DNA of 64,000 nucleotides. Origin: Bilabrum cf. latius. Taxonomy: Eukaryota. The notes beneath the pieces are model-generated. The model was not told the origin of the DNA and made no database searches. It was given only the letters and a program-made list of their open reading frames with translations. Shown piece after piece: positions 34,307 to 56,745 of this stretch; within the stretch, counting starts at the first letter, position 1, and every line of letters starts with the position of its first letter. The position numbers were made by a program, and so were the translations under genes. The DNA lies in the NCBI GenBank assembly GCA_965178125.1, contig OZ237756.1:930001-994000 (forward strand), read 5' to 3'.

Positions 34307-37219
34307 ATGCTTAGATCGCTATTACGATGCCGTCCTTCGCTGCTTGGTGCTCGACGGATTCTACAGCCCAGTTCTTTACCTTTCAGAGTTGATTTCAGCA
34401 AGACGAGTGATTCGATCGTTTGCTCCAGATATATGTCTAGCAATCATGGGCTAGAGATGCGACACAATCCGATCGGGGTAGATTATGCGTGCCAGGAAGC
34501 ACAGCGCAGGTGTGCTGAGGCCATAGTACCGGAGCCAATGGATCCATTTCCGGAAGATTCCAATGCAGTTGACTCAAATGCCAACAGTGTGTCGACACAG
34601 CCCGCGGAGGATCCTATTGTCGCCGGCATTGTGAGGGATTCCGATGCTTCGACTTGTGGCCTATCGATCGCGTCAGGCATCTCCGTGGGCGCAGGATGGA
34701 CCGCCATCGACTTGGGCAAGCTAGTGGCATGTAGAACTATACGATTTGGTTTGCTTCGGTTGAGTGGCTCTGCATCATATCCAGCACCCGCACAAGGGGA
34801 GCCGCCAGCATCTCAACGCGCTCTTCCTCACGAAACGGAGCTGAGGGAGGCCGCAAGGCGCATCTACTGGCATAGCGCGGCACACTTGCTGGGTGGCGCT
34901 CTAGTCAAGCTACTCGGGGGAGATAGTAACGAAAGCATTCGGCAGCTGTGGCTGTGTGACGGTCCTGCGCTGGTGTCAGGCGAAGGCGGCTTCTTCTACG
35001 AGTTCTACAGGCCTGCTGTGCAGGAGCTTCCCACCGGGGCTGATGCAGCAGACACACTTGGGACCACCGAGGCGCCGCCGCTGCCTCTTCCTACGAGTAC
35101 CTTACGCCGGCTCGAGCGAGACATGCTCAGCGCCGCCAAGAAGTCCACCAAGGCCGTCAAGAAGCTGGCGCGACTGGGGCACGGCAGCAGCAGCGCCAGC
35201 GAACTTGATACGATCGGCACAGCCCTGGATGTTGATGGTGCTGATCCAAAAGGGCTCGCATGCATCGGTTCCAGGTAGGTAAGCGAAGGTGAGGTGCACG
35301 AGCTGCTTGGGACCGACCCGATCAAGAGGGTAATGGCGGGGGAGATCGCAGCGAAGACGGATGAGCCGCTTACGGTGTACTAGAGCGGGGATTTCACTGA
35401 CCTGTGCAGGGGCCCACATCTACCCTCCATGGGAGGAGCTTTTGGTGCCATCGAGCTGTACAGGGCTGGGGCCAGCTTTGCTGAGTCGTCTGCTAGGCAA
35501 GTGCGGGAGGCCTACGTTATGCTGGGGCGAGCGGCCGAGTGCCCTGCCTAGCCGCAGCTGGAGCGGGTGTACGGCATTGCATTCCCGACTAAGCTGCAGC
35601 TGAAGCGATGGAAGCAGCGCGTGGCGGCAGCCTAGGACCGGGACCACCGCCGGATCGGGCACCGTCAGAAGCTGTGGGCGTTCAGCGAGGAAGCCCCAGG
35701 GTCCCCGTTCTGGCTGCCTGGCGGACAACTCTTGTTCAATACGATCGTGGACTATGTGCGAGGAGTCGTGACGAGAGACGGTTACAGCGAGGTGCAGACC
35801 CCTTAGCTGTACCGCCCCTCGCTATGGAAGGCATCTGGGCACTGGCAGTACTACCAGGAAGACATGTTTGGTGTGGCTGCTGCCCATGAGGTTGCCGAAG
35901 GGTTGGCAGGGGGGCCATTGCCTGACTCCACCACGAGCAGAGCAGACGATAAGGCTAAGCACTCCCATGAAGAAGACCATGGAGATATGTTTGGAATCAA
36001 GCCAATGAACTGTCCTGCTCACTGCAGGATATTCCAGGCATTGGCACCCACCCGGCGTGAAATGCCGCTTCGACTGGCCGAGTTCTCAGCCTTGCATCGA
36101 AACGAGGCATCGGGAGCCTTGTCTGGAATGACCAGAGTGCGACGATTTCATCAGGATGACGGGCACATATTTTGTCGGGATCCCACCGAAGAAAAGGCGG
36201 AATGGGACGCGCGTAGACAAGGCGACGATGTCAGTTCAACGCCAGTGGCTTTCGTGTCCCAGATCGAGCGGGAGGTGCTCGGCTGCCTCAGGCAAGTAGA
36301 GGAAGTGTACACGAAACTCGGATTTAGCACAAGTACGCTCCGATTCAGGCTGGCCACTCGGCCGCACGATGGATCTGTGGGTTCTGATGAGGTTTGGCAC
36401 GAGGCCGAACGAGCACTGATGGTGTCGCTGCGATCCGTGGTACCCTCCATGCTGGGTAAACGGCCAGCTAGTCACGGCGAACCCTTGGATATCGGCTTAG
36501 GGGAGCACCCGCATGACTCGCTGTACGAGGTAGATGACGGTGGTGGTGCATTCTACGGGCCGAAGATTGACGTCGCATTGCGGGACGCGCTTGGGAGAGA
36601 GCATCAGTGCGCTACGATCTAGCTTGACTTCAACTTGCCCAACCGCATGGGGGTGAAGTACCCTGCTTTTTCTGTGCCTAAATCCGAGACGGGTGGACTC
36701 GAGTCCCTGCAGTCGCAATCGGATCCAACGATACGGTCCGAGATGGCTCCGGTGCTGGTGCATCGCGCCATTTTGGGATCGGTGGAAAGAATGCTGGCCA
36801 TCCTGGCAGAGCACCACGGAGGAAAGTGGCCTTTTTGGCTCTCCCCCTATCAGGTTGTTATTTGTGGCGTGGCAGACAGGCATGCGGACGCTTGCCATGC
36901 CCTTGCATCTCGACTGCGGGCTGTAGGTGCATAGGTTCAGTTGGACGTCTCACAGCGCACTGTGGGCAAGCGCGTGCGCAAGGCACTGTTCGAGCAGGCC
37001 GCATGTGTCGTGGCTGTGATAGGAGACGAGGAACTGGAAGGTAGCAGCAGCAGGGATGATGGGCTGGTATCCGTACGGTTTCGCGATCAGAGCGTGGTAG
37101 CAGATCTAGGTGCCCAAGAGGTCGTGAAGGCCGTGAATGACAGGCTTGAGGCTGGGAGAGTGGGTTGGAAGGTGCTGGCGGACTGGGTACAGGCTGGACA
37201 AAGCAGCAGTGTGGCATGA
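34307..37219 (+). CDS. TARS2: threonyl-tRNA synthetase, probably mitochondrial
   Basis: YWHSAAHLLG, GFFYEF, DLCRGPH, LERVYGIAFP, RDHRRIG, KPMNCPAHC, HRNEASGALSGMTRVRRFHQDDGHIFC, AFYGPKID, QCATI*LDF, HRAILGSVERM, WPFWLSPYQV. One frame with 7 in-frame TAGs (35276, 35381, 35549, 35633, 35804, 36620, 36932). N-terminal presequence MLRSLLRCRP. Confidence 0.95.
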
Positions 37220-37300
37220 ATATACAAGCTAGGTGAATAGAACAAGCAGCACAACTCTACATAATCAATTAGCGTGGGCTTACATCACAGGCCAGCCTCG

Positions 37301-40300
37301 TTACTAGCGCCCGCCGCGTTGTTGGATACCACGCTGCACCCCCCCCTGTTTCAGTTCTCGCATGGGAATTCTTAAAGACCCTGCTGCGCGGCTTTCCGCC
37401 GCGTTGGACTTGCTCTTGGATGAATGGCTTCCCTGGGCTGGCTCGAAGCGCAGAGTTCGCTTCCACGACTGTGGGGACTAGTTGGCTCCGCTGCTCCGAC
37501 CCTCTCGCAGACTGTCTAGCGTGCCTTCCCCGGCAGCGACAAGCATGGCACGAGTTCGTCCCTCCCTGCCTCCTGACGGGGAAAACATGCTGGCGAAGGC
37601 AGACAGTAGATTGCTTGCAAGCGATTGCTTAGACGCAGACCCCGCCCGCTGCACGGGTGTGTGGACAGCGCGATCATGACGAGGAGAGGCTCCAGCGTCA
37701 CGCGAAAGGCGAGACACTTTGCCTCGCAGTTGGGACGTTTGTCGTTTGACAGCAGTTCGGGACTAGAGCAGTGCTGGCGCTATCGGGATGGGGCTGGTGG
37801 TAGGAGCTATCTGCCGGCCCACATGTGCAGCCATCAGAGCAGAAGCAGAAACCGGCTCTGAGCTCGAAGGCCGTTCTGGTTCATCATGACTTGACTCCTG
37901 CCCGGCCTCTAGGTCCTGGAGCTCCTCATTGATCGTTGCAATGCGCTTGGGGCACCTTGACCCGAAAAAGAAGCGCCCAGCAGCGTGCCGCAGGCGGTTG
38001 CATGCGCCCATGTCGATCGCACACACCTGATAGCTTTGACCAACAGCCGCACCGCCCTTTGAAACTGACCAGGTCAGCACATCCTCAAACCATGCATGGC
38101 AAATTGGCATTGTCAGGCTACTATCGCTGTGGCCGGGGCCAAGTGGGTGCAGCCCCGCATACTTGCGAGGACTCGCGAATCCAGCTGCACCTGCTGATTG
38201 GAACCTTGTCCGGATGCCACTTGGACTAATTACAGCGCCGACGCCCTGAAGCTTTCTTGTCCTGGCCACAACCGAAGTTTTAGCAGGTGGAGATACTAGC
38301 TCCGATGGTGTCTGTAAGGCCTTCTTGGTAGAAGCAGGGGTACTGCTGCCCTCCGTGACCCTTGCACCAGAACTGCGCCTCACAACAGAGGACAAACGCG
38401 AGGGTTGGCCAGCTGGCAAGAGAGCAGATGGCCGTCGCCCAGTCGCCTTCGCCGAGGCGTTGGGAAGCTGCAGCGGCGGGAAAAGCTGGGGAGAATCCCT
38501 GGACATGGCTCGCATGTCGGCCGGTGTGATCGGTGAGGACGAGCCATGAGCTCGACCTGACCAGTGAGACCCATGTTCTGATGGATCGGCCGCACCTTTC
38601 GGGCTGCCTGTCCGTACGCCCTTCTCAGCGGCTGCTTCGCGCCGCAAGGCACTTATGATGGGAGACATGCCGGTCGGGCGCACTCCAGTAGTCACAGTGC
38701 GAACTGGGCTGAGCAACCCAGTCGTGCCGTCCTACAGTGCGCCGCCAGCAGCCCCAGCTATGCTGTCTACGACGGCATCTGCAGTTGTACGGCCCGCAGG
38801 GTCAGCTTGGATCTCAACGGCGCCAAACTGGCTAGAGCCTGCAGTGATTTGTACCTCATGCAGACTGCTGGCCAGTGAGAGGTCCGACTGTGGCGCCCTG
38901 CTCCGGCCGCGACCTCCCTGCTTGGAGGAGCCATGCGTGGCAGCCACCAGACCGCACCCCTCAGCCCATGCCCTCTGCGCCTACGGGGCGGGAAGCAGGC
39001 ACCTGGGGCCAATGGACAGCCTCAGCAACTACCGCCCGCTGCACAGCTGCTCGCCTGCCTGCTGGATCACGCCCACTGCTGCAGCGAAGGCTGGGCCCTG
39101 CAAGTCGACGGGGATCCCGCGCTGCGCCCAGCCAGTCACCGCAGCAGGGTCCTGCAAGCTGCACCGAGGCTCAGACTCTTTCATGGATGCCATGCTCGTC
39201 GATGGTAGCACGGGGCCGCGCGATCCAATCGCGTCCCGGACAGCCCTCAGGATGGCTGCCTCCCGGTGGCACAAGACGCCCACAGCCACCTGGAGCAGCA
39301 CGCGAATGCCCGCACCGCCGCACAGGTCGCTCTCGCGGGCAAGTGCCCCAGAGGTGCTGGCCGCCCCGGACATGCCCCAGGTACTTGCAGCAAGAATGCT
39401 GGCATCCCACACGCGCAGAGCCACGGGGGCTGGCATGGCACTCAGGAAGCCGCACAGCAGCCATCGAGGCAGCACCATGGCGAGGGGCAGCTGCACTGCG
39501 TCCAGGACTGCTTTCGCGGCGGGTATGGCCTGGCGACCCATGGCGCTGGTGGCGAACTCTGCCACGCGCAGAGCCGCCAGCCCGGGTGCATGCAGGCCGG
39601 GCCACACCCTGGTGGTCATGGCATGCACCAGCACCATTGCCCGGGGCTCGTCCCCTCCCGTCAGCAGCAGCATAGCGGCGGCCATGAAGTTGAAGGACTA
39701 GACGTACCCGACGGGTCGGTTCAGTGCAGCGAGACCAAGCAGCACCCGACGCAGCGCTGGTCGGTAGTCAGGCCAACTGCCACTGCCAGTGAGTGCATCC
39801 TCCTCCTTCCCACCCGGTTGCTCTATCCTAGGATCGTCGTTTTCTCTGGGACAGAAGCTCGGGTGCTCTCTAAAGGTGCGGGGCACATCCACCTCGATCT
39901 GATGCACCTCCCGAGGACTAAGCAAGAGCTCGCCAGGAGCCTGTGGGAGATCATCCACTTCCAGGTCAGCACGACTGAAGCTGCGAGAGATACTGCCGGG
40001 CGAGTCCTCAGACTTGGCAGCTGCCTCCCCCAGACTGACCAGAGCCTTATACCCAGCAACGCCCCCAATGGCATCAAGCACATCGCTTGCTCCCGTAAGT
40101 TTCATCCAAAGTGCAACGCGAACCGGCTGGGCCGTGCCTTGTTTGCAGTCAGGTACTAGGGGAATCTGGAATGTTGGGAAGCCGTGCTCTGCTACAAGCA
40201 GGGCAAGTTGTGCGGCGTCTAATGAGCTGAGAATTGAAGCGACTATTGTGTCTACTTGGCTAGTGGAGTGAACGGGGTCACTACTACCAGAAGTCTGCGC

Positions 40301-40420
40301 TATAGCAACCTTGCCAAGCACACGGGCCCACGCATACTCAGAATCTCGTTTCTCCTCCTCAAGTTTCGCCCACGCTTCCGCAGGGAGGCCTGAATACGCA
40401 AATCCCAATGAATCTCTCAT
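37301..40420 (-). CDS. TBC-domain Rab GTPase-activating protein
   Basis: QIEVDVPRTF (Arg finger), LRRVLL...VGYV*SFNF (Gln finger encoded by TAG 39698-39700), ALRVWDA. ORFs 39698, 39029, 38732, 37763 and 37478 are in one frame; ends TAA 37301. Confidence 0.8.
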
Positions 40421-40629
40421 GCTGCGCCACCACGCAAACTTGAATGCTCAGTGGCAACCATTTCAGCGGCAGCAACACCAACGGCTATCAAGCCGTGTGA
40501 CCAGTGGCGACGGTGAGGGTGACATGTGCTGCCATTTAGAGCTCACACAAGAAAACGAGGTGTACAATCCGAAAGTGTGTAATACATCAAATTGAAAGGG
40601 TCCGCTAGGATCGTTTTGGGCTCTCCGTG

Positions 40630-41358
40630 ATGGCAACATGGCAGGATTCGAAGGCAAACCTGGAAGAGTTGGTCGCTCTTCTGAAGGAAGACGATTCAGA
40701 GTAGAAAGCGATAGAGGACCTGACAACGGCAATATCAGATCTAGGGGCTACTTTCGAGACGGGATTTGGCGATGTTCGAACAGCCATACGAGGTAAGGTT
40801 TTGCAGATGCATTCGAGCAATTCCTTTTTTAGGGTAGCCGACCAAACATCAAAGTTTCTGCATCTATTCGTTGCCTTCATTATTATTGCAGCATTAGGTA
40901 GACGTGTTGAGTCTGCAGAGCATGCTGCATCCAACACTGGCGACCTTCGGCTCCTTGACTCTGCAATTCGAGACGAGCAACAACAGCGGGAGAAAGCACT
41001 GCATATACTAAAGGAGATCATGGATGCAAAAGATAGTGCCAAGGATAGAGCTGAATCTCTTCGATAGGCGGCCGCTAGTGCGCACGAGGCCAGCCGGCGC
41101 GCCATCGCGGCTCGTGAAGCTGCCCTTCCCCGCCTCAAGCACTCCATGTCGCTCTTTGCCGCTGCCTCCCACATCCGGTTTGACATCGATGCGCCTGGCG
41201 GGCATATCAAGGGTGTGGTGGCCCCTCCCTCGGGAAGCGAAGGCGCGGGCCCGCTGGCCTTCGATCTGCAGCCCAGCAGCGAGGGACTCTCTGAAGTGGA
41301 TGTGGCGGACCGGCTGTGGGACCTGGTGGGAGCGGCCACTGGTGTGGGCGCCCAGTGA
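40630..41358 (+). CDS. SPC24: Spc24-like kinetochore (Ndc80 complex) protein; one intron at about 40793-40890
   Basis: Coiled-coil N-terminus then SLFAAASHIRFD...IKGVV...LAFDL...SEVDVADRLWDLV, resembling the Spc24 RWD tail; two in-frame TAGs; TGA stop. Confidence 0.6.
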
Positions 41359-41510
41359 TCGGGGTGCGATCTGTCTCCAAGCGTTCCCCTGCACCATGCA
41401 TCTGGAGCGGGGCCATCCCTGCCAGTGGGGGAAATGGAGGGCTGGTGGGTATCGCACTAGGCCTGCACGACTGAGGCTGCTTGAGCTGCTTTGCAATGAA
41501 CTGGAATGAA

Positions 41511-42197
41511 TTACAGCCGTACTTTTCGCACAAACATGGAGTACATCGTGTACAGCTGCCACGCCCCCAACCCAATCGTCACGAGAAGTTCAGCGATGCA
41601 GAACCACATGACGCGCTCGTTCGTGCTCTCGGCCGTATTGCGAGACTGCCTCTCCCGCGACCAAAAGTAGCGCTGCTCGTCCTGTATGGCTGACAGCGAC
41701 TCTTGCAGTTTCACAATCTCCTACTCGAGCGGAGTAATGTGCTCATGTGTCGCAATGTCCTGATACAGCTGGTCGCCGACATGGATCGTAAAAGCTAGCT
41801 GTTTCACCTGTTGCGAGGAAATTCTGTTCTCGAAGCATAGTTTGTACAATCCGTCTCCGGTTGCTGTCGATTGAAAGTGCCCCATAGATTTCTTGTCTTG
41901 CTGGACAACTCGCTGACCAGAGGGATCAAACAGCTGCAACCAAGAGGGGAAGAACCACCAATCATGCGTCACGGATTTCCTAACAGCAGGCCAACGGTTG
42001 TAAACAAATCAACTTTTTCTCACCGTCACATCGATATCATGCAGTCCGCCGGAAATAACATCGTAGCTTGCAGCAACCTTATTGTGTGCTTGCACGGGCT
42101 GCAGCACGCACTGTGATCCAGTCGCAGGCACTTCCATCTATATTCCTACGCATTTTCGTACCAATATCAAAATGAGGGACAGTCCTACTATACGCAT
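41511..42197 (-). CDS. p24/emp24 GOLD-domain cargo receptor (TMED2-like); one intron at about 41933-42023
   Basis: Signal peptide MRIVGLSLILILV, GGLHDIDVT, GLYKLCFENRIS, EQRYFWSRERQSRNTAESTNERVMWF, TM segment, tail FVRKVRL; two in-frame TAGs; ends TAA. Confidence 0.9.
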
Positions 42198-42344
42198 TAT
42201 TTTCTAGTGCCAGCCGAAACGAAAACACAAATTGGCGGAGAGTTGTGACGAGTTGCATAAAGTAACGCGTACTTTGAAAGAATACATCGCGATGGCCCGA
42301 TTCGCGGCGGCTGGATCCCGCTGGCGTCTCCACCTTCTCGTGCG

Positions 42345-43349
42345 ATGGAATACATAGGCTTTGGTTCCTCGCAGAATCCCATTGAAGCTACTCGGAGGAG
42401 GCGCCAAATCTACCTACTTGTCTCCGCATTCAGCTTGGCTCTGATCATTGGGTCTGTGGCAGGTGACAGATGGGTTGCGGGCATCAAGGAAAGGTCTGAC
42501 ATCCAAGCAGAGGATTTGGCAAAGGACTGCCCGGCCTGCTTGTCTGACTATCAGGCTATGGAGGGAACGGAGGAAACGCCACCTTTGACCTTTACTGATC
42601 ACAATGAGTTCAGCTTCGGGCTCTGGGAATACCGCCAACACCGCCTCGTTCGCTATGATGTGTAGGGACAGAGCTTTGAGTTTGAGAGCACATGTTTCAT
42701 CAAAGTTGAGAACATGGAGCGGCTCTGGAACCGGCAGGCGCAGTACTCAGACGATCCTGATGTCCAAAACGCTCCAACCATGAACGCAGAAGACTTTGAG
42801 GACCCCGCTGGCCTCATGGTTGCTACCCTGGCCTTCCAGCTCATCCTGTTTGTCTGGGCTATCCTTCTCGCAATGGGATTTTAGCTGTTCTGCTGCAGCG
42901 GCAGCACCCCCCAGTACGTGGGAGCCTCCCTGCAGGCCCTCACGTGGATCCTGCTCGTTTCGGCAATGGCGAAGTTTAGCAGCGCCAAGGTCGCCTAGAT
43001 CGTGTGCGGCCTCGTAGACCCCGACCAGGCAGTCAAGTGCGGTTACGGTGCCGGGTTCAAGTGCGCCGGGGTGGCCATCATGTTCATGCTGTTCGCCTGC
43101 GTGCTCTCCTTCTGGGCCTTCTCGGACGTGGACTCGGAGGTGAACAGGGCGGCTACCGGAGGGCTGGCCGATGCGGCTGCCGTTGCGGTGGGCGTGGGGG
43201 CAGGAGCGGGGTCATCGGACCCTGCCGCTGCCTACAAGCCCAACCCGTCCGCCTTCAGCGATGACGCAGCAAAGGAGCCGCCGCAGGACGGGGCAGCGAG
43301 CGCTCCCGCGGATAGCGCGGGCGGGGTCGGGTCTTACCAGTCGCTGTGA
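42345..43349 (+). CDS. claudin/PMP22-like tetraspan membrane protein
   Basis: TM1 followed by FGLWEY motif, three more hydrophobic helices and CGYGAGF before TM4; frame interrupted only by TAGs (42663, 42741, 42882, 42996); TGA stop. Confidence 0.6.
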
Positions 43350-43673
43350 TTGCGACTGCCCACAGATGATGGGATTGGTATTTCATTCGACGGCTCTTCG
43401 GTGGGCTCTCGCGCGGGTCTGCTGGGCCAAAGTTGTCCGAATACCCGGTGCGAGGCCGTCAACTGCAGACTACTCGATCTACGCCAAGATTGAGGGTAGC
43501 GTTGTTTGACAGGGTCCAGATTGCTTATGCATGCTTGTTCAGCTATAGTGTATCGCATCCTCCGTATTTACATGCAACATTTCAAAACCGTCAGGTGGGC
43601 CCCTGGTGATGCGGCGCCGCACGACCAAGTCTCAGGTGGCATAGCGGAAGAGTGCACCGCGCCTCTGATCTGA

Positions 43674-46600
43674 TCAGCCCTCTGGCTGCTTGGGAGGGCG
43701 CGGGGCTGTCCTTCCCTTCTTGCTGGGGGGTCCGGGCCGCTTGCTGGCCCCGCTGGCAGGCCGGGACACACCCCTGCCACCGGGCGCACCCGACGCTGCC
43801 CGGGGCCTCACCTTGGTGCCTGGCTTGGGCACCTTTGGGCTCGCCTTGGATGCCGGAGGCGCGGAGCCCGACGAACCTTGGGCATGGGTATGGGCGTGGG
43901 CTGCATCTGCGCCAGCCGACACGCTCGCCCTAGTGCCGGGCTTGGGCTTGGGAATGGCCTTGTGGCCTTCGGCGGGGCCCGACTGGCTGCTGCCCGCTGC
44001 TACTGCCGGGGCCGATGGAAGCAGCGCTCCGGGCCAGTGCCTCACGCTTGCTCCGATCAAACCCGCTCGATCGGCCTCCCCTTCGTCGGCCCCTGCTTCT
44101 GTCTTGCCAGACCGCCGCGCCCCGGCTCCACCCCCGATTCCCCCCTCCTAACCGGTCTGATACTGCCTCAGGGGATTCTGCTTCACCCGCAGCTGCGCCC
44201 CCTCCCCGCCCAGAGAGAAGCTGCTGCCGGGCACCTGGCTGCCAACCAGCGATACGCTGGCTCCTTGCGACCCCCTTGCAAGCTGCACCGGGTTCATAGA
44301 TCGGCGCGCGCCCCTCCGTCCCCGACTCAGGGCCCGCCCCCTGCTTAGGCCACCGGACCCCGACCCCGCCATGCGACTCGCTTTGCCACCGGAGACCCGC
44401 ACTCCCAGCGAGGAGGGCCCGGCCTGCACTCCGCCTCGCCTCGCGGCCGCAATCGCTGCCCGCAGCAGCCTGCCTAGCCTCGTGTACGCCTCTGAACCCA
44501 GCAGCACCCGACAAGGGGCCTCCCGCAGCGTGGCTGGGTCAGCCCGCGGGGCAGAGGCGGCGCTCTCCAGTGCGCTTAGCGGGTTCCCCTCCTCCTCCTC
44601 CTCTTCCTCTTCCTCCTCGCCGCCTGCTTCGCCCCTTGCAGCAGCCGCCAGCACCGCCTCCAGCACTGGCACCGCCGCCTCCACTGGGTCTTCACTGGAG
44701 CCATGGACCACTTGTGCAGCCCCCTTCTTTCCATGCGGCTGCTTGCGCTGCACCAGGGTGGGGAGCAGCAGCGGGAAGTAGAACGTACCTCCTTCCTGCT
44801 CCTCCTCATCCAGCACTTCCACCCACACACCGATTCCCGCCCTTGCCTGAGCCGCGTGGGAGACAGGCGGACCACCTGCGGCCTCCAGCAGTGCGCCCGT
44901 TTGTGCTCTCTGCGCCACCAGCGGGTCCTCGATGTGCTAGGCCTGCGACGAGTCCGATGCCGGGCTGGACGAAGCTGCAGCACCTCCACTGGCACCGGAC
45001 ATCTGAGAGAACAATGACCCGAAGTAGCTGTGCACGCGAGACCGCCGCGTCGGCCCCGTGCTGGAGCCGGTCTGTGGTTCACTCCCCTGTGCCCCCGGGC
45101 CAGCATCGGCTCCATCACCGCGCATCAGCTCCCCCTGCTCCAGCGCAGCCAAGTCCACGTCGTTGAGAAGAAGGGCCTCCTCGTCTTCTCCCTCCTCGTC
45201 TGCCTTGGTCTCCTGCTCCTGACCCCTGTCCAAGCCCTTGCCCTTGCACAGGCCCTTGCCTGCGACTTCCACCATCTCCACCGCTCCCGCTGCCCCCGCC
45301 CTCCCCACGCCCTCCTTCGAGTCGGCACCCAGGCCCCCATGCTTGCCCACGCCCCCGGCGCGCTTCCCTGGCGGGCCCTTCCCCGGGGGGTGCTTGCCCA
45401 CAGCACCCGTGCCCTCCAACTGCTCCCGCTTCTGCCTGAGCATGCGCTTCTTCGCGGCGCCTCGCTTGCTTGGGGGCAGCGCCTTGATCTTGGCTTGCTC
45501 GGCCGGAGTCAGAGATACCTCCACGGGGTGCCCTGCCTCGGCTAGGGCCCGGCGCTTGGCCTGCAGCAGCTTCTTCTTGGCCGCCCCTCGCTTGCTGGGG
45601 GGCAGCTTGGCGAGCCTTGCTCTCTCCTCAGGGGTCAGCTGCAGGGGGTCGGCGGTCTACACCTCCTTGCTTTCGCCCGTCCTGCTGCCTGCTCTCTATC
45701 GCCCCCCCGCTCCCGCACCGCCCCCGCCCTGCTCGCCATCGGCCCCCTTTGCCTCCCCCTGCCTCGCCATCACCGCGCACAGGATCGCGATCGAGACTAG
45801 CTCGAACACCTTCTCCAGCACCTTGAGCCAAAACCACAGCCAAGGGTCGTCCTCGCTCGCGTCCTAGAATGCGGTCTGCCGCAGACCAAACACGAGCGCA
45901 AGCAGCAGCAGCACCACCATTTCCCCGATCAGCAGCTGCGTCATGCGCCACGCCTGCTGCGCTCTTCGACCCGCCTGTGCACCTCCCCCACCGATGCTCT
46001 GGATCTTGCAGATTAGCTGACCGCCATAAATGGCGGCGACAATCATGACACCTAGGTAAATCAGGAACGATACCACGCTTGTCACTGTTGCTGGCCAGGA
46101 GGGCTCGCGGATTGCTAGCTCAAAAATAGCATTGAGAGTTCGAACGCTGGAATACACGCCTAAAACGGCGTACAGGACTGGCTTGTATGCATCAATGTTG
46201 CTCCTTTGCGAGATGCTGCTCTAGAGCTCGACCCAGAACAGCACGATGAGCAGGAATGACATCAAGAAGCAGACGTCCTTGATGCACCTCAAGATCTCTT
46301 CGCCGATGCAGCCATTGTATAAGGCCGTGAGGTCAATAAATGACAACGCTCGCACTACAGCTCCTAAGGTAATTGTAGCTAATACCACTGCCCGGTTATT
46401 GTCGCATATATTCACCCGACGGCCTGGAGCTTTGGCTTGCATCTGCCCGTATATCAGGTATGTCCCGTACATGGACCAGACAGCCACAGCTGCGTACCCC
46501 AACCAGAATACTACTTGATACCAAATGTACCCGGGCGATTCTTCGACTTGCCGCTTCGCATTGTCAACCTCACACGCTCCGACGAACTCGGGACCAATCT

Positions 46601-46919
46601 CAGTCTAGTTCGGGCTTGAAGAGTTCGATCCATCTTGCAAGCGCCTTGACAGATTTATCGGGATATATGTGTACGCTTTCATGCGCTTCAACCCGGCCGC
46701 CTCCCATGCAATCGAGAAGATGCTGGAAATCGATTGGGTCCCAAGCGTTCCTTTCGCTTGGCGGCCACGTGCCATTCTAAGCTCGCCTGCGATGTCCCTA
46801 TGCGGACCCCGAAGATGATCTGGAATACTAAAACGGTTCGTGTCCGCACCATGCGAGGCGGCAAACCCTGGCAGCCCGACCACTATCACACTGAACACCA
46901 TAAGAAGAGTCTGCAGCAT
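43674..46919 (-). CDS. signal-peptide, 7TM-like (THH1/TOM1/GPCR-like) membrane protein with long cytosolic tail
   Basis: ORFs 46605, 46221, 45864, 44937, 44148 and 43674 share a frame linked by TAG; multiple TM helices (e.g. FLLIVLFWVEL); duplicated LTP.E.A....LPPSKRGAAKK motif in the tail; TGA stop. Confidence 0.6.
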
Positions 46920-47180
46920 GACTGCAAACCCCAGGCTCAGTCCGAAGCAGCTTCTCTTGATGCACGAACCGTAAAACAAGTGAACGAAGCCGGGGGCTGA
47001 GAAGCACTCGAAGGCGAAGTTCTGGCACAAGGCGCTGTATGCCTGAAACGAGATCGCCGCGGCGCTGGCACAAACAGATTTGGTCGCAACGTGATGGAGA
47101 TGCTGGATTGTTGTATTTAAGTTGCCAAGACAGAGCGAATGGTTTAATTAAAGCATCTACATTGCTTTGCATGTACTTGA

Positions 47181-47537
47181 TCATTTCTTAAACAACTTCC
47201 AAACTCCACCGTAGCGATAGTACGGAAACCTTGATTTATCTCCGTCAACCACTCCTCCAGATACCCTTGGCCAGCACTTTGTGCACACAAACTTCCAATC
47301 TCTTGATGCGTCTATTTGGCACCTAATGAGGTGCGGGTGCTTTCCTCCGCACAAGTGGCACGGCTTCATCATGTCTTCCGGTGTTCTGCTTCGCTTGGCT
47401 CGTGCTTCCTATTTTGCCGCTTTCTTACGCCGCTTCCGCTCAAGTTTCTTGGAGATTTTGGAAGAGTCGGTGCTACAGGTTCTGCTAGGTGCGCGGTCCA
47501 CATGCTCGGAAACCCAAGCACTGGAAGACGATGCCAT
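47181..47537 (-). CDS. small conserved hypothetical Cys-rich protein (CxxC...RC...W..VCxxCW...YRYGG.WK)
   Basis: ORFs 47409-47657 and 47181-47372 are in frame through TAG 47409; TGA stop. Confidence 0.65.
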
Positions 47538-47777
47538 AGAGCTACAACTGGGATGCAAAAAACGACGGAGCAGATTGGCTGATAACCACTTGTTATTCAT
47601 TCCATGGCCACTAGCCCAAATCAAGTCCTTGTTGTTAGGTAGCAGCAGCCACGTCATCGAAAATCAACGAGCCTGAACGAACTTCAGTTGAACTTTCTCT
47701 CCCCGCGGCGGCGCCCCCAACGGATCCATCGGTGCGCGCAAAGCACTCCTTTCCAATTTACTGAATAGGCTAAAATC

Positions 47778-49052
47778 ATGGCTGCTGCAGGAGGCATGGT
47801 AGCTGACCCTACCTTACAGAGTAGGGTAGATGCCTTAGAGGCCAGGATTCGATCCAAAATGGAAACGGAGACCGGATTCGGCACCGCGGCCGACCAGGCA
47901 TCGCATCTGAACAAGGTATTTAGGTTCTTTAACACTGACAAGGTAAGACAGTTGATACTCTTGATATGCACTCCTTTGCATTTTTCTCTCTCACTACGAA
48001 TGGCTGAAGCTATGGACTCAAGCTTTGTGTAGATCGCGGTAGTCCTTTTCTTCTTGTGTGCTTTTGCTTGCGCTGATGGGACCGCATTGACCTCTATGCT
48101 TCGAGTTCGAGCACCGCAGGATGGTTTTCTCAGCTTTGAAGAGTTTAGTGCGGCCATGGTGCGCTTGAATTTTGTGGGTGTGCAGAAAGAGCTCAGGACT
48201 TTGTTCGACCGATACGACAGCGACGGCAGTGGATTCCTTGCGTACGAAGAGTTCAGTGCGGGTCTCCTCGGCCTAATTCCCAATCCCAAGGGAGATCCTG
48301 TGGTCCGATCAGCGATCGACCGCATCCGGCACAAGATGGCCGAGCGCGGCTCTCTGAACTGCATCCGCAAGATGGGGCGGGCCTTCCGCATCATGGACGA
48401 CTCGAGGGACGGCCGGCTGGACGAGGAGGAGCTTAAGACGGGCCTGAGGGACTTTGGGGTGGACCTTCCAGACAAGGACATCCACGTGGTGATCAAGACC
48501 TTCGATCGGTCCGGGGACGGTCGGGTGAACTACGACGAGCTGCTGCGAGGACTGAGGGGCAACCTGAGCGCACGCCGGCGGGCCATGATCTAGCTGGCCT
48601 TTGACGTGCTGGACAGGGATGGCAGCGGGCAAGTCACGATCGAGGACATCCTGAGCGTGTATGATGCCTCGCATCACCCCGACGTGATGGACGGCAAGTG
48701 CACGGAGAAAGAGGCCCTGGGGGAGTTCCTGGACCAGTTCGACACGCTGGAGAAGGACGGCATCGTGACCAGGGAGGAGTTCCTGGACTACTACCGGGAT
48801 GTGAGCGCGAGCATCGACTCGGACGACTACTTCGAGCTGATGATCCGGAATGCCTGGAACATCTCGGGGGGAGAGGGGGCCATGGAGAACACGTCCAACC
48901 TGAGGGTGCTGGTGGTGCATGGGGACGACTCGCAGGACGTGGTGGAGGTCAAGGACTCGTTCGGGCTGGACCGCAGCGACGTGTCGGCGATTCGCAAGAA
49001 GCTGGAGGAGCAGGGTGTGGCAGACATCAAGGAGATCAAGCTGACTGCGTGA
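47778..49052 (+). CDS. calcyphosin-like EF-hand protein (intron about 47943-48119)
   Basis: Multiple EF-hands; GRAFRIMDD, LDRDGSGQVTIEDI...YDASHHPDV, EEFLDYYRDVSASIDSDDYFELMIRNAW (calcyphosin signature); TAG 48591 read through; TGA stop. Confidence 0.9.
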
Positions 49053-49923
49053 GGGCTTGCATGCACTCTGTGGTTGGTTAGCTGCGGGTGCACGTGCCTT
49101 GCTGCGCGTGTATGGACTATATGGACTCGGTGTGATTGCTCCACACGTGTCATACATCATGATAGACGACTTCGGTCATTCATACTCGTGCCCCTCGTCA
49201 CGGACCAGCAGCGCCCACGTCGGCCAGCTCCTGCTCGCCCGGGACACATGCTATATTTGTCCAACAGTGCGGTCAGGGTGGTGCTGCCACGAGCTTGCCG
49301 CCTCTATCCGGCGTCTTGTCGCTCGAGATGCCTCCAACCAGTCATCGCCTGTCCCATCCTAGCCGACACTTCGCCCCCGCTTCACGCCGAGCTGCCACTC
49401 AGGGGGTATCGCTCCGGCAGTCTCGCCGCACCTAACTCTTGCTATCTTGGACCAAGACTGCGTCCCGGCACCCGATTTGTATGTATCCGTGCATACTCTT
49501 GGCAAAGATATGGCACGAACCCCGCTAAGCGCTTCCATCTGTCGAACGACGGAAATTCCAACAGTTGCAGCAGCTGGAGGTACCATATCGGGACTAACAA
49601 ATGACAAAATTGTGTTTGTACTAGCTACATGAGCTGCGCGCCCATTGCTCTTGTCAATAGCCGAGGCAGAGCTTGCTGCAGAGCTGCCCTGGTCCGTTAC
49701 ACTGTTGCTCTCCGGCTTACCCTTCGTTGTATCAGCTTCGCTGGCACTTTGAACACCCTATCGACGGCGAGTCTACCGGGGCATTCGCCCAGTTCATGCA
49801 GAATCTAGTCAAGGACGGACGGATGGTTGCTTCGTCCGGCGGCGGAAGATTCCGAATCGGCCAGATTTGCCGGTCCATGTCCAGGAACAGTACTCGCCCG
49901 GCCGGAATTCCTCAAGGTTTTCC

Positions 49924-51320
49924 ATGAGCATTAGAGGGTGAGAAGAGTTGTACGGTCTATATATCGTTACTCTCGCGCAATGCTGTACATTTGTGATGCA
50001 ATTACCCTACCGTGTACCCGTGCAGTCGTGATGCCCAAATCCAAGCGTTCAAGGCAAAACACCCATATGCCCAATCCGAGGTCGGTCAGGATGGTGAAGA
50101 TGTTTTCGTGCTTGGTATAATCCTGAGCAGAAAACCGCCCGGCTGGAACCCTGCAGCTCAGTGCATCGGAACCTTCAGAATGTGAGTATACCCAGCTTAT
50201 CTGCACTGGCGGGCGTGCGAGCAAATAGCAGCTGCGATGTTGTACCAACTCTTTATTTATACCTGCAGATCATTGCCACCCTTGTTCCCTTCTGAGAGAC
50301 CTCGGATTCATATCCAAGCTCCTGATGGATACGGTCTTAGCCATCCAAATATTTCCCGTGGCATGGTTGTAGGAATACGAGAGCTGGACAGCTGGAACAT
50401 ATCCAAGAGGCTAATTGGTAAGGTTTAGGCATCGGCAGCATGCTGTCGACTCATGTTATTGTCACAGCCGCGATGAAACCCCCGATTTGCCTGTCGACTT
50501 CGCAGATGTCGTCCAAACTGTCTTTCGGATCATGTGCCAGGAACAGCCACCAAACGTGTTTCCCGCTGCTGTGCATAGGTCCCCTCCGGGTTGGTTGGCC
50601 GCTCCAGCGCCTGCCCCTACCCCTGCCCCTGCCCCTGCCCCTGCCCCTGCCCCTGCCCCTGCCCCTGCCCCTGCCCCTGCCCCTGCCCCTGCCCCTGCCC
50701 CTGCCTACCGCCCGATGCCGTCCACCAGCCGGTCTGTCCCCACGGGCCCCGTGCATATGCCCCCCTGTCCAGATCGCTTTGTGGGCGTGGACAGCATGGA
50801 GCCTGCCGTGCTGCAGGTGCTAGCCGTGGATGAGGGAGAGGCGGACAGGACGGTGCACCGGCAGGAGCCCGGGATCCGTGGGCTGCGAGACAGGCTCAAG
50901 GGGCTAGTGCAGGCCAACAGGGACATGGCCGGTCGGCTGGTATAGGGGGCAGATGGACCCTCGGGGCACAGGGTCCGGCGAGAAACCCTCGAGTCTCAAC
51001 TGGCGGTGCGCCAGGTAGAGGGGGCCCAGCTGGAGGAGAGGCTCAAAGCGGCGCTGCGCAAGAGGGACCAGGCAGGCGCGGGGCAGGGGGGTGATGCCGC
51101 TGCGCTGAGTGCCAAACTTGGGCGCCTGGAGGAATAGGCGGGGGATGAACTGGATGTAGCTCGCGAGGAACTGGTCGATGGGGCTTGGGAGAGCGGGGAT
51201 GGAAATCGACGGCAGGCCATCAGCAAGGTGTGCGACAGGATCCTGGCCGCTGCCACCCGCAGGGCCGAGATGCACGGGAAGAGGCTGCTGCTGGATGCGT
51301 TTGGACTTGCCACCGAATGA
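49924..51320 (+). CDS. VPS37-like ESCRT-I subunit (UEV-like N-terminus, Pro-Ala linker, helical C-terminus); about 3 introns
   Basis: Spliced RDAQIQAF...ISLPPLFPSERPRI...LSHPNI...LDSWNISKRLI, (PA)n linker, coiled C-terminus with in-frame TAGs; TGA 51318-51320. Confidence 0.5.
50610..50706 (+). repeat. (CCTGCC)n hexamer repeat encoding (Pro-Ala)n
   Basis: near-perfect hexamer run. Confidence 0.95.
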
Positions 51321-51513
51321 TCGGCTGCAACAGATATACGTGTAGGACGCCACTCACTCGTCATGCGGCCAACTGATTGTCGGCCTGACCGAGCGACACA
51401 AAAATTTAGCCCGCGCCACATCTACTCGGAGCCTCAGGAAATCCACGTGCTCGAAAGACGCCTTCCAAGGCTCCCAATCAGGTGTGTTTGGAATGGCATT
51501 CTAAGCATTAAAT

Positions 51514-53382
51514 ATGGATGCGGTCAGTAGTCCTGCCAGGCGGGCTCGTAGACGAAGGAGACGGAGACGCGGTCCAGGCCAATCGGGTGCACAGACTGGT
51601 GCGCCTGCTCTGACACTTGGGGGTTTACTATCCAGCTCTCTGGCTGGGCATGATAAACAACCTGCAAAGGTGCACGATTCCAACCTGTCCAGACCCCATG
51701 GCTTGGCAAAAGCACCGGCGATTCCGAAAGGTGGCTCAAGCCGGTTTCGAATCAAACCAGCGTCTGCAGAAAAGCATGGTGGTCACGGCGGTAACCCTGG
51801 CAGCGCCTCGAGAGTAGTTGTCTAGTCCAGACGCAGGAAACGCGCATCTCCTGTTGCAATCGATATGCTCCGAGAGAGGCTCAACAGGTGGGCGACGAAC
51901 AATCCAAAAGCAATGTCAGCTGCGCTAGAGCACTTTGCGGGCAGGCCTGCGGACTCGCGCGGGTGCCAAGAGCTCCGTGAATCTATGGCTGATGTCGACC
52001 GGACAGATTCTGAACAAATTGCCAAGGTTGTTGCATGCTTACTGCACTATGGTGGTTTGACGAGAAGTACCAATGTGGCAGCAGTCCGATCGATCGTTCC
52101 TTGGATCCCTACTGCTGGCTCAGATTAGCGGGATGCCGTGTCACATCACCCACCAGATATGTACATGGTGGGCAGTGTGAACATTGAGGTGGCAGCTGCT
52201 GCCTCATCTGGCCCTACGAAGCCAGCCGGAGTCAAGTCTACCCGTGGAGTTCACGCTGCATCAAACAAGCTGTCCCTGCACCTACCTGCCTCAGTCATTC
52301 GCCTAGAATCGGAGGCGCTCATTGCCGCAGTGCAAGGTGTATCGTCCACTAAACCGCCGTGTGCGACCGTTTGTCTGGTACATGCAGGAAAGCCCACTGC
52401 AAGCGCCGCCCCAACTGTGCCGTGTCCTAGCCCCCATGCAGGGTCATCGGGCAGTGCGCCTGCTGGTCCAGCACTGGAACTGCAGCCGAGCACAGGAAAG
52501 GAACTATGCATCCACATGCCCCTGCAGGCCCCGCTGCTGGCCGCCCCGTTGCCCCCGCACCAGGTGCGACTCCGGTGTCCCCATCAGCTGTCCGCCGCGC
52601 TGGATGCCGCCGTCGAGGCCATGCTGCGGAGGGTCCGTCGGTTGCAGTGGAGGGCGGAGCAGAAAGACCTGGCGGCAGCGAGGCTGAAGCCAAGGTACGT
52701 GGCTGGGCTGCGGCAGGCGTGCAGTGCTGTGAGAACGGGCCGTGCTCTGCTGGTGGTGCTGGCTCCAAACACCAAGGGTGGAGACGGGAAAGGAGCCATC
52801 GGGAGCGGCCCAGGAGATGGCGCCGAGGCAACTGGAGCAGCTTCTGGTGCGGGTGCATCTGACCCGATGCATGCCAGCCTGGGTGCAGACCCAGGTCCTC
52901 CTCAGCAGCCTCCTCTAGCAACGGGTGGCATGGATGGCAGAGTCCGTGCCTTAGTGCAGTCCATTGTAGCAGCGCAAAACGACGAAGCAGCTACGGCTGC
53001 CTATGCTCTGTCGACCGGCAAAGGTCGTGCTGCTGCCCTGCGCAAGGGCACCGAGTGCATTTGCGCCCTCTCAACGAAGCGAATCGCTAGGGCGCTGCAG
53101 GACGTAGGAGGGGGAAGGCGTGCAGGAGATGCGGCTGCGGGCAGATCAACAGGGGGAAGGCAAGCAGGAGATGCGGCTGCGGGCAAATCAAGGCGAGGCA
53201 GCCGCAAGCGAAGCGGGCCTGAGCACGTGTCGGCGATTGCTCTGCTGTCAGAGGAGCAGCTGGGCGCCCTGCCGCAGGTTGTGCGGGCCCTGGCTCGCGC
53301 CCTAGCTGTGGGTGGTGGTGGGCTCGCTGGCGCTGACGTCCCGGGTGCGCCGGTTGGTCTGTGGGTACACCACAAACTGTGA
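51514..53382 (+). CDS. SECISBP2: SECIS-binding protein 2-like (L7Ae domain)
   Basis: CPHQLSAALDAAVEAMLRRVRRLQWRAEQKDLAAARLKPRYVAGLRQ...LLVVLAPN...CALSTKRIARAL...VSAIALLS parallels the SBP2 RNA-binding domain. ORFs 51514, 51865 and 52138 are in frame via TAG; TGA stop. Confidence 0.75.
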
Positions 53383-53488
53383 CCTTGGCGATGGTGCTGT
53401 ACAGCAGATTGCCGTGGATACGTCTAGCGAGTAAATCAACTAAATCTTCGACTTGACTGAAAGTACGCGTTTCGATCTCTCCAGGTCA

Positions 53489-55435
53489 TTACGCGAGCTC
53501 GCACTTGCCACTGATGAGCAGCTGCAGCAGCTACTTCTTGTTCACCTTTCCCATAGCGTTGCGGGGAATTTCTTCGACCCAAACAACTGCTCGGGGGCTC
53601 TTGTACGGAGCCATCTGCCCCAGGGCCCACTCCTGCACCTCCTGGGCGCTTGCATTTGTGCTAACTGGGGCCCGCACCGCTAGGGCAAGCACCGTCTCAC
53701 CCATGCCTCTAGCCTCCAGTGCGGCGATGGCATGCCCACACGGTTCCAGCCCGCTACTGTCCCACTTGTCTCGCAGAGCCTATCGCACAGCTGCTGCATC
53801 TTCGTCTGGAATCCCGAGCACTGACACATCGCCGACAGCCTCGTGGTCCAGCATAACCGTCTCGGCCTCGAGCGCCGACACCTTGTACCCTCCTACCTTA
53901 ATGATGTCCGCCGATGCACGCCCCAAGATGCGCCAGCGACCCTTCAAATCCCGCGCCACCATATCACCGGTCTGGAACCACCTTGGGACCGCTTGCACCT
54001 GCTCCTGCGACATGGCGCGCTGTGCCGCCGGGCCATTGACACCCTCATAGGCAACCGTGCCAGCGGGCAGCTGCGACCCCTTCTTGAAGGCCTCTGCAGT
54101 CGCCTCTTCCCTGCGCCAATAGTGATCAAACACGCTGGGCCCAGCAAGCCACAGTTCCCCGGTCACTCCCCCCTCTTCCCCATCCCCATGCTGCACATCC
54201 TGCGGTCTTGCCTCGCGGTCAGGAGCCACTGCCGCCATCACCCCCGGCAGCGGCCAGCCCACCGACCCGAGCACCCTGCCTTCCTCGGGCTCGAATGGAT
54301 TGGACAGCGCCATGCCCACCTCCGTCATGCCATACCTCTCTAGCAGGCGGCCGCCCGTGCGCTGAGTCCACGCCCGGCCAAGGGCTGCTGGCAGTGGCGC
54401 TGATCCACTGAAGCACTACACTGCTGGGCTACGACCCCGGACATGCTCTTCTTTCAGCACATTCCCCGTCTACTGCAAGAGCTTGTGGTACATGGCTGGC
54501 ACTGCCATGAAGCGCGTGGGGGTGCACTGCACTGCAGGTGCATTGTCCTCCTGCCCTGTCAAAGCGCTCCACACCGTGTCCGGAGAGAACTTGCCCCTGC
54601 GCATGTCCACAGTGGCCCCCGCCCACATGGCGCACTGCAATCCGTTGATCAGTCCGTGCACGTGGTGCAAGGGCAGTGTGTGCAGCACGATGTCGCTGGG
54701 TTGCCACTGCCAGGCGTCCACCAGGGTGGAGGTCATGGCATCCAGGGAGGCATGTGTATGTACGACGCCCTTTGGTCGACTGGTTGTGCCAGAGGTGAAT
54801 ATCATGAGTGCCCCGCTGCCAGATTGCGCAACATGATCCGGCAAATCGTCATGTAGCGGGCGGGCGCTTACATGTGCAGCGTGCTGCTTATTCCACTGCC
54901 GCACTGACACATGCTTCGCATGCAGGTTTCGGGCAAGATCCTTGGCTTCATTGTAGCTGTTGCTAAGATCAAGAATGATTCCACTGCCCGAAGAAATTGA
55001 GGTCGTGGATGCAACTGTGCTCACCGGCACTGGAAGATTCAGATCCCAAACTCGGCTTGCAAGGGAACTGCTGCAGATAACCATAGCAGGATCTGATGTT
55101 GTTATCGCATACCCCAACTCAGATTGTGGGTGGGAGTCACACAGTGGGACTACCATAGCGCCAGCTTGCCAAACTGCCCACTGCGCTGCAACGAAGTCAT
55201 ACCCAGTTGCCAAAACACATACTCTTGGTGTCGCCTGCGCTGACATTTGTTCACTCTTCTTGATTCTAAGGTACTAGCTGATCTCTACGGCAAGCTGCGC
55301 CGAATCAGCTCCCAAGTGCTAGTAAGTAAAGGCATGGGTACGATCCAAATCAAGAATAGCTATTCTCTCCGGTGAATGCACCTGAGACAGTTTAAAGACA
55401 GTAGACATAGGTCTTGCTGGTGATTTGCAGAACAT
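53489..55435 (-). CDS. ACSF3: AMP-dependent acyl-CoA synthetase, malonyl-CoA synthetase (ACSF3)-like
   Basis: FTSGTTSRPKGV, LPLHHVHGL, SGSAPLP, LERYGMTEVGMALSNP, WFQTGD, GRASADIIKVGGYKVSALE, IPRNAMGKVNKK; several in-frame TAGs; ends TAA 53489. Confidence 0.9.
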
Positions 55436-55865
55436 ACCATGTCGTTCTGCAGAATATCTAGTCAGGTGAGAGCATCGTCCGAACCGCCCGCTGCGATGCA
55501 AACAGCAACTCACAATTGCATGTATATTCGAGTACAGCAGAAATCAGTCACGTCTACCTATAACCTTACTCTACTCACGCTTTAGAGATAGCTCGAAGCA
55601 TACAAAATTTGTGTACGTGTAGCTGACGCACCTGCATAAATGTAGATCTAGGAGGCACCATGAGTGGTGGCTCCGGATCCGAACGCACACGGACCTACCT
55701 AACTTGATAGATCGACGTGCAATACTAATTTGGTACTGTAAAGTCATGCTATTGCTTAACACAATCTCATATATCGTGCCCACAAGGCGCCAGCGGCACC
55801 CTCCAAACCTCATCCGTGGCGCTCTCGTCTAGCCTCCGGTACATGTTCGTGAGGCCAAGGATAAT

Positions 55866-56745
55866 GGGTTTAGGGTTAGGGTTAGGGTTAGGGTTAGGGT
55901 TAGGGTTAGGGTTAGGGTTAGGGTTAGGGTTAGGGTTAGGGTTAGGGTTAGGGTTAGGGTTAGGGTTAGGGTTAGGGTTAGGGTTAGGGTTAGGGTTAGG
56001 GTTAGGGTTAGGGTTAGGGTTAGGGTTAGGGTTAGGGTTAGGGTTAGGGTTAGGGTTAGGGTTAGGGTTAGGGTTAGGGTTAGGGTTAGGGTTAGGGTTA
56101 GGGTTAGGGTTAGGGTTAGGGTTAGGGTTAGGGTTAGGGTTAGGGTTAGGGTTAGGGTTAGGGTTAGGGTTAGGGTTAGGGTTAGGGTTAGGGTTAGGGT
56201 TAGGGTTAGGGTTAGGGTTAGGGTTAGGGTTAGGGTTAGGGTTAGGGTTAGGGTTAGGGTTAGGGTTAGGGTTAGGGTTAGGGTTAGGGTTAGGGTTAGG
56301 GTTAGGGTTAGGGTTAGGGTTAGGGTTAGGGTTAGGGTTAGGGTTAGGGTTAGGGTTAGGGTTAGGGTTAGGGTTAGGGTTAGGGTTAGGGTTAGGGTTA
56401 GGGTTAGGGTTAGGGTTAGGGTTAGGGTTAGGGTTAGGGTTAGGGTTAGGGTTAGGGTTAGGGTTAGGGTTAGGGTTAGGGTTAGGGTTAGGGTTAGGGT
56501 TAGGGTTAGGGTTAGGGTTAGGGTTAGGGTTAGGGTTAGGGTTAGGGTTAGGGTTAGGGTTAGGGTTAGGGTTAGGGTTAGGGTTAGGGTTAGGGTTAGG
56601 GTTAGGGTTAGGGTTAGGGTTAGGGTTAGGGTTAGGGTTAGGGTTAGGGTTAGGGTTAGGGTTAGGGTTAGGGTTAGGGTTAGGGTTAGGGTTAGGGTTA
56701 GGGTTAGGGTTAGGGTTAGGGTTAGGGTTAGGGTTAGGGTTAGGG
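55866..56745 (+). repeat. telomeric (TTAGGG)n tract 1 (~880 bp)
   Basis: perfect TTAGGG array, G-strand pointing toward the window end. Confidence 0.99.

Follow-up and report, generated by a model that had tools for sequence, protein, structure and literature searches.

The 64,000-nucleotide stretch considered here (assembly GCA_965178125.1, contig OZ237756.1, positions 930,001 to 994,000 of the forward strand, deposited as Bilabrum cf. latius; the whole stretch is called the window) raises the question of what the codon UAG means in this genome, where TAG lies in frame in gene after gene, and of whether UAA has changed its meaning together with it. The window DNA is nuclear and comes from a GC-rich, intron-poor eukaryote (GC ~60% across the 64 kb); genes lie on both strands, and introns are few and short. 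The evidence set out below makes it highly probable that this genome, which probably belongs to a heterotrophic stramenopile near Cafeteria, reads UAG as glutamine (Gln) and retains UAA and UGA as stops, corresponding to NCBI translation table 15.

Read with the standard code, the window has no stop-to-stop frame longer than 624 amino acids (aa), as compared with a maximum of 2,780 aa when TAG is read as sense, the next longest frames then being 1,158, 1,056, 1,049 and 1,001 aa; if TAA is treated as sense in addition, the frames gain little further length. Eukaryotic Pfam domain architectures are distributed along these TAG-containing frames, including a four-domain voltage-gated Ca channel, a threonyl-tRNA synthetase (ThrRS), an FAD-linked D-lactate dehydrogenase (D-LDH), an ACSF3-like AMP-binding enzyme, a TBC RabGAP, a p24/EMP24 protein, an SDE2/SPRY protein, a kinase/ARM/RING protein and EF-hand proteins. 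The Ca-channel gene (10203-18542, minus strand; Pfam Ion_trans, E 4e-214) contains 21 in-frame TAG and neither TAA nor TGA in 2,780 codons, and ends at TGA. TGA also ends the genes for ThrRS (34052-37219, plus strand; seven in-frame TAG), for an EF-hand protein (32201-34051, plus strand; two) and for D-LDH (28511-30481, minus strand; six), a FAD oxidase identified by Pfam whose stop lies at the family C-terminus ...NPGKVY, as well as a gene of 1,000 aa without a name (23561-26563, minus strand; twelve). Six in-frame TAG are found in the main exon of the ACSF3-like gene, a putative malonyl-CoA synthetase (53489-55490, minus strand; Pfam AMP-binding and AMP-binding_C), seven in the TBC RabGAP frame (37301-40447, minus strand; Pfam RabGAP-TBC), two in the kinase/ARM/RING frame identified by Pfam (1321-4116, minus strand), which ends at TAA, and one in a small conserved open reading frame (ORF) of 133 aa (30594-30995, plus strand). 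The p24/EMP24 gene (minus strand; Pfam EMP24_GP25L), composed of a last exon at 41511-41933, an intron at 41934-42023 and an upstream exon reaching to ~42140, carries its in-frame TAG at 41721-41723 (...TPLE-TAG-EIVKLQE...).

As frames defined by their stop codons would prejudge the question, the coding spans of 12 window genes (7,841 codons) were delimited by homology, i.e. by the limits of Pfam or orthologue alignments. These codons comprise 49 TAG, 215 CAG and 52 CAA, while TAA and TGA are both absent, so that TAG makes up ~15% of Gln codons. In the other two frames of the same DNA TAG is found 52 and 49 times, as often as in frame, while TGA occurs 169 and 154 times out of frame as against none in frame. 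TAG is an ordinary sense codon in these genes, and TGA is a terminator and not a tryptophan codon, as it is missing in frame and closes 15 of 20 delimited gene ends.

The same pattern is found in a second species. A 189-aa fragment (P0369; 87% identity), retrieved by a sensitive search with D-LDH as query, is encoded on a 29-kb metagenome contig, 16,850 bases of which (L002; GC 54.6%) were used for comparison. L002 is syntenic with the window at 28.5-36.6 kb, with ~68-80% DNA identity, and keeps the gene order of a TBC-like gene, ThrRS, the EF-hand gene (81% identity between the two orthologues), the small ORF, D-LDH and two unnamed genes, the 1,000-aa gene of the window likewise having an orthologue in L002. 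Reading TAG as sense extends its longest frames from 525 to 1,105 aa, and its 3,301 homology-defined codons contain 30 TAG (~21% of Gln codons) and no TAA. The P0369 fragment stops exactly at an L002 TAG which faces CAG in the window (D-LDH residue 502/524), and gene calling under the standard code thus breaks such genes. That UAG has parted from UAA is well supported by these two related species and, as the code is common to at least two species with ~70% DNA identity, the reassignment is not recent.

Gene ends bear on whether UAG may still act as a stop in places. Twenty ends were delimited with TAG read as sense, so that a TAG end was excluded by construction; 15 are TGA and five are TAA, in agreement with the preliminary description of this DNA, which had found that most genes other than those it listed with TAA end at TGA. 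Three of the 15 TGA-ended frames are scarcely supported beyond their openness, two of them lacking homology (20836-22074 and 22347-23441) and one having a weak orthologue (26965-28287). In all five orthologue pairs the alignment reaches the TGA or TAA end, or falls at most 10 residues short of it, in both species. A dual meaning of UAG, as Gln within genes and as a stop in some contexts such as those near the 3' end, would resemble the ambiguous stop/sense codes of the Condylostoma and Blastocrithidia type, but is improbable here. It would accommodate the TBC frame, which ends ...GGR-TAG-TAA and in which TAG might be the stop with TAA as a back-up, and TAG terminators would be invisible among ORFs delimited in the above manner. 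Against it stand the five orthologue pairs, none of which ends at TAG (the preliminary description had named frequent TAG terminators at orthologous ends as an observation that would count against its reading), the equal frequency of TAG in and out of frame, and sense TAGs close to true ends: one lies 14 codons ahead of the ACSF3 stop, within the conserved motif GKVNKK-x-L, and two lie 10 and 14 codons ahead of the small-ORF stop in L002. No gene in the window requires a TAG stop, and the TAG-TAA end of the TBC frame leaves a small doubt in this small sample.

With UAG taken as a sense codon, the status of UAA has to be settled separately. The preliminary description had cited four TAA ends, which are located where it placed them, i.e. 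at 41511-41513 (p24), 53489-53491 (ACSF3), 37301-37303 (TBC) and 30993-30995 (small ORF), and the kinase/ARM/RING gene provides a fifth. As evidence of termination those of p24 and the small ORF stand, while those of ACSF3 and TBC do not. The window version of the small ORF closes with ...DYLVALKWT-TAA and the L002 version with ...NYFVALKWT-TGA, i.e. at the same residue, and read-through of its TAA would append 93 codons; its one TAG faces a Gln codon in L002. The p24 protein ends ...FVRKVRL-TAA at residue 153, six residues past the last matched position of EMP24_GP25L (residue 147, aligned with position 181 of the 182 in the profile), and read-through would append 307 codons running antisense into the neighboring gene. 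The ACSF3 and TBC ends, like that of the kinase gene, do not discriminate, as further stops come within 0-6 codons: the cited ACSF3 stop, 15 residues past the invariant K of GKVNKK (homologue tails measure 7-23 residues in 44 aligned sequences), adjoins an in-frame TGA at 53486-53488, the TBC stop is followed by in-frame stops 6 (a further TAA) and 11 codons on, and the next in-frame TAA of the kinase gene lies 6 codons on. The comparison of TBC tails is uninformative on TAA as well, since the tail is unconserved in L002 (best local alignment score 63). Judged from these alignments, TAA terminates genes at orthologous or family-typical C-termini.

The absence of TAA from the coding frames points in the same direction. 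If TAA:TAG mirrored CAA:CAG (0.24), 11.9 in-frame TAA would be expected in the window (P(0) 7e-6), and 18.5 in the less GC-rich L002 (P(0) 9e-9); other A/G codon pairs taken as a proxy give 5.8 to 20.3 for the window. None was observed in either. TAA is not missing from the window DNA as such, since the other two frames of the same DNA hold 20 and 31. In-frame TAA at conserved Gln columns, the other observation which the preliminary description had set against its own reading, was found nowhere in the 7,841 window and 3,301 L002 codons, and its proposal that UAG has been reassigned while UAA has not and still terminates genes is borne out by this deficit (none against ~12 and ~18 expected), by the orthologous TAA/TGA stop of the small ORF and by the p24 C-terminus.

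These data bear directly on the more familiar code of table 6 type, in which UAA and UAG both stand for Gln and TGA is the sole stop, as in many ciliates, Dasycladales, Hexamitinae and Amoeboaphelidium. Such a code resembles the present one in that a stop codon has become a Gln codon, plausibly by way of a tRNA-Gln derivative, but TAA is sense there, while here it is never in frame and terminates genes. It might be argued that TAA is simply too rare to show at ~60% GC, where A-ending codons are in the minority, and that TAA ends are read through to a nearby TGA, which the further stop within 0-6 codons at three of the five TAA ends would tolerate. This is very unlikely, as in-frame sense TAA, by which a table 6-type code would be recognized, occurs at none of the 11,142 codons of the two species pooled, in the face of the expected numbers and the out-of-frame occurrences given above, the small-ORF TAA aligns with an L002 TGA at one residue, and p24 read-through would run 307 codons past the family end.

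The amino acid inserted at UAG was assigned from orthologue codon pairs. Distant homologues alone had been tried for this purpose and found ambiguous, with a narrow lead for Gln and several leucine-rich columns. Four genes (ThrRS, EF-hand, D-LDH and the 24-kb gene) provide 45 sites at which TAG is present in one species but not in the other, and the partner codon is Gln at 16 of these 45. Requiring a flank identity of 50% or more leaves 30 sites, 13 of them with Gln as partner, and requiring 70% or more leaves 17, of which 10 have Gln (CAG or CAA); in comparison, true Gln codons of the same orthologue pairs are conserved at 68% at the last of these thresholds. When candidate amino acids were scored with substitution frequencies from the same orthologue alignments, Gln led the runner-up by 40, 39 and 28 log-likelihood units at the three flank thresholds. 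In the EF-hand pair alone, five sites with well-conserved surroundings have TAG in one species and CAG in the other, and two TAG positions are common to both species in the orthologue pair of 23561-26563. The ThrRS protein contains a TAG at ...CATI-Q-LDF, in a column which is Gln in 41 of 41 homologues and is encoded by CAG in the L002 orthologue. On this comparative evidence TAG is to be read as Gln, and the orthologue pairs settle the question.

UAG has been assigned to leucine (Leu; table 16-like codes) or serine (Ser) in other lineages (see below), and an assignment to another amino acid, or an ambiguous Gln/Leu reading, would explain the Leu-heavy columns among deep homologues as well as the modest lead of Gln over 17 pooled, well-filled columns, where it comes first by 5.8 log units over Ser and 7.3 over Leu. 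The chance of this is remote, since Gln is ahead by at least 28 log units in the orthologue pairs, where Leu is outside the six best and is the partner at two of the 17 sites, since L002 has CAG or CAA at two of the supposed Leu columns, and since the ThrRS column named above is invariant for Gln.

Several points nevertheless weigh against the table 15 code as proposed. At seven of the 17 best-flanked sites TAG faces a residue other than Gln (Leu twice, Ser twice, and tryptophan, glutamate and arginine once each). Among the deep columns, the TAG at ACSF3 residue 341 falls where 43 of 44 homologues have Leu, in a segment which is evidently divergent because the query also deviates at two adjacent near-invariant columns; the Ca-channel TAG at residue 95 falls in a column with Leu in 24 of 46 homologues; and the TAGs at ThrRS residue 26 and D-LDH residue 469 fall in columns of 25 Leu, 13 asparagine and 3 Gln (41 homologues), and of 24 Leu, 15 isoleucine and 8 Gln (48 homologues), respectively, with L002 having CAG at the former and CAA at the latter. 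As to UAA, two of the five TAA ends discriminate, the expected in-frame counts assume that TAA:TAG would parallel CAA:CAG, and the tally is based on 64 kb and 17 kb and not on a genome. The placement near Cafeteria, finally, is a weak, single-gene indication from one FastTree tree, as D-LDH and ThrRS give no coherent signal.

Eleven public sequencing runs cover the window stretch wholly or partly, and four of them, one of DNA (X1) and three others (X5, X6 and X7), were compared over 37000-55700. The contigs of X5-X7 omit seven stretches (87-177 bases, with GT..AG borders) which are retained in the X1 contigs, and these runs were taken as transcript-derived solely by these seven joints absent from X1. 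The p24 intron is removed in spliced contigs of all three runs, and a 5' intron of the ACSF3-like gene (55491-55578) is likewise placed by spliced contigs. Pieces of spliced contigs cover 13 of the 16 in-frame TAGs (six genes) without differing letters, insertions or deletions, as judged from contigs, which lose rare variants; the p24 TAG at 41721-41723 is covered by spliced contigs of all three runs, none of which is reported to differ there. The p24 contigs of these runs end at 41505, 41540 and 41564, respectively, positions which cannot mark RNA ends. RNA editing or intronic position does not explain the in-frame TAGs, because these 13 sit unchanged in spliced contigs. That the TAGs go untranslated, whether as pseudogene lesions, assembly errors, introns or codons edited to CAG in the mRNA, can be dismissed as extremely improbable, for it draws support solely from the in-frame introns which some open frames do hold (e.g. 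47941-48117), while TAG-bearing frames are conserved in two species, TAG is the sole stop codon in frame, the covered TAGs lie in exons, and the window matches the X1 DNA with no other letter over 37000-50597 and 50713-55700.

The code with UAG alone as Gln could be brought about by a tRNA-Gln with anticodon CUA, which would decode UAG but leave UAA untouched, since a wobble C pairs with no base other than G; the release factor eRF1 would no longer recognize UAG efficiently, or would lose the competition there, while its recognition of UAA and UGA would be kept. This mechanism, whose eRF1 and CUA-tRNA parts the preliminary description had already put forward, is plausible and agrees with the proposals in the accessible portions of two earlier reports (PMC5304391, PMC11687900), according to which anticodon CUA reads UAG and not UAA while UUA reads both, the usual explanation of why the two codons are coupled, and CUA suppressor tRNAs or eRF1 changes are reported from other UAG-only lineages. 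Panek et al. (2017, PMC5304391) name as candidate eRF1 changes L69A for rhizarian exLh and T32G for Iotanema. ARAGORN detected no tRNA gene in the window and none in L002, neither contains an Rfam match at gathering thresholds, and no eRF1 gene lies in either of them (81 kb together).

The preliminary description had set the splitting of UAA and UAG against the usual ciliate-type code, in which both are reassigned together, but the split is not without precedent. In the same accessible portions (PMC5304391, PMC11687900), UAG alone is reported as Gln in Iotanema spirale, in Protocruzia tuzeti and in the two phyllopharyngean ciliates Hartmannula sinica and Trochilia petrani, as Leu in rhizarian exLh and in TARA phyllopharyngean ciliate metagenome-assembled genomes (MAGs), and as Ser in Scotinosphaera. 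A close counterpart is I. spirale (Fornicata), a non-ciliate protist described as having UAG alone as Gln and UAA and UGA as stops (Panek et al. 2017, PMC5304391), for which a CUA-anticodon tRNA and a changed eRF1 were proposed, as they are conjectured here. That organism is an anaerobic metamonad known by its transcriptome, whereas the present lineage, for which the evidence is genomic and comes from two species, is GC-rich, resembles stramenopiles and is predicted to be aerobic by its mitochondrial-type D-LDH and ACSF3-like genes. H. sinica, T. petrani and P. tuzeti share UAG alone as Gln, widespread in their genes, with UAG making up 18.5-31.8% of Gln codons in the figures accessible (McGowan et al. 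2024, PMC11687900) as compared with ~15% and ~21% here. The present lineage is, however, no ciliate and has ~60% GC, and while 93.5-100% of aligned C-termini in those ciliates end in UAA according to the same source, TAA accounts for five of the 20 ends here and TGA for 15. The exLh lineage, the TARA MAGs and Scotinosphaera resemble it in splitting UAG from UAA with UAA retained as a stop, as far as these sources extend, and differ from it in the amino acid, since both Leu and Ser had to be rejected here on the orthologue codon pairs. The code itself is therefore already known, while the present lineage appears to be new as a carrier of it.

As to what this lineage is, the best named matches of the Ca channel are two Cafeteria roenbergensis sequences (1,393 and 1,363 bits, 44% identity), followed by oomycetes and ochrophytes. 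In a FastTree tree of 47 Ca-channel sequences (1,476 columns) the window sequence falls within a clade of 32 rows whose named members are all stramenopiles, as sister to two Cafeteria and two unnamed sequences (SH-like support 96). The best named D-LDH matches are scattered over Vitrella, Closterium, a red alga, fungi, Syssomonas and Capsaspora (42-49% identity), the ThrRS matches are from oomycetes, chytrids and fungi at no more than 44% identity, and nothing named is closer than ~50% identity. The source is thus probably a heterotrophic stramenopile near Cafeteria, as suggested by the Ca-channel sequence.

No nuclear code change in a stramenopile or bicosoecid was found in searches of the openly accessible literature, 2025-2026 reports on UAG reassignment in protists included, as judged from the opening lines of abstracts. 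With due reserve, the window may present the first stramenopile nuclear stop-codon reassignment and an independent and old origin of UAG as Gln, in a free-living, GC-rich sister of the Cafeteria group with TGA as its main stop; the origin would be old because it is shared by two species ~70% identical in DNA. If so, a GC-rich lineage preferring TGA would stand in direct contrast to the ciliates in which UAG is Gln, which are AT-rich and prefer UAA. Nuclear codes which split UAG from UAA are rare and serve to test why the two codons are as a rule reassigned jointly, for which wobble by the UUA anticodon and recognition by eRF1 are the candidate reasons. The present lineage would add a further independent case, in a distant lineage with a GC-rich genome and TGA as main stop, and would widen the comparative set for those eRF1 changes by which G is told from A at the third position of stop codons. 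For the clade, annotation and metagenome surveys need table 15, because the sole close relative in the protein library is a 189-aa fragment ending at a TAG, and standard-code calling breaks its genes. Annotation with table 15 may also help to match recoded giant viruses to their hosts. Such a lineage, if confirmed, would also be a candidate host group for giant viruses without a known host whose genomes read TAG as Gln, which is a lead only; in the accessible part of a giant-virus catalogue, all confirmed isolates come from standard-code hosts (PMC13524828).

Some further features of the window concern its introns. An EF-hand gene (plus strand) has, at 47941-48117, a stop-free, in-frame intron of 177 nt which is spliced out in the contigs of three runs; the unspliced frame crosses it, and ORF-based protein models there therefore carry a false insert of 59 aa. 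In the Ca channel, residues ~1756-1795 (window ~13170-13290, minus strand) form a 40-aa insert, GETTCLPH...PTLAG, unmatched in the majority consensus of 46 homologues; it is probably another in-frame intron, with a GTGAG-like donor at its start and a CAG-like acceptor at its end as judged from the translation. An LSm-like, intron-containing gene (~31700-32110, minus strand) has an in-frame TAA past ...VRGDNL which is part of a GTAAG splice donor and is no terminator. A coiled-coil gene (40547-41528, plus strand; intron 40791-40889, TGA at ~41356) is convergent with the p24 gene (41505-42215, minus strand), and the transcript contigs of the two overlap by ~24 bases (41505-41528). The gene at 49150-51320 (plus strand) contains three introns of 87-88 nt (49937-50024, 50182-50268 and 50417-50504) and a long (Pro-Ala)n run, and the contigs of the DNA run are broken at the repeat (50598-50712).

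The ACSF3-like gene is the last one before a region (55870-63905) in which perfect (TTAGGG)n blocks of 877, 393, 102, 305, 305 and 203 bp are interleaved with 155-bp satellite arrays, with the G-rich strand running 5' to 3' toward the right end of the window. The arrangement resembles a chromosome end in which telomeric and satellite blocks are nested.

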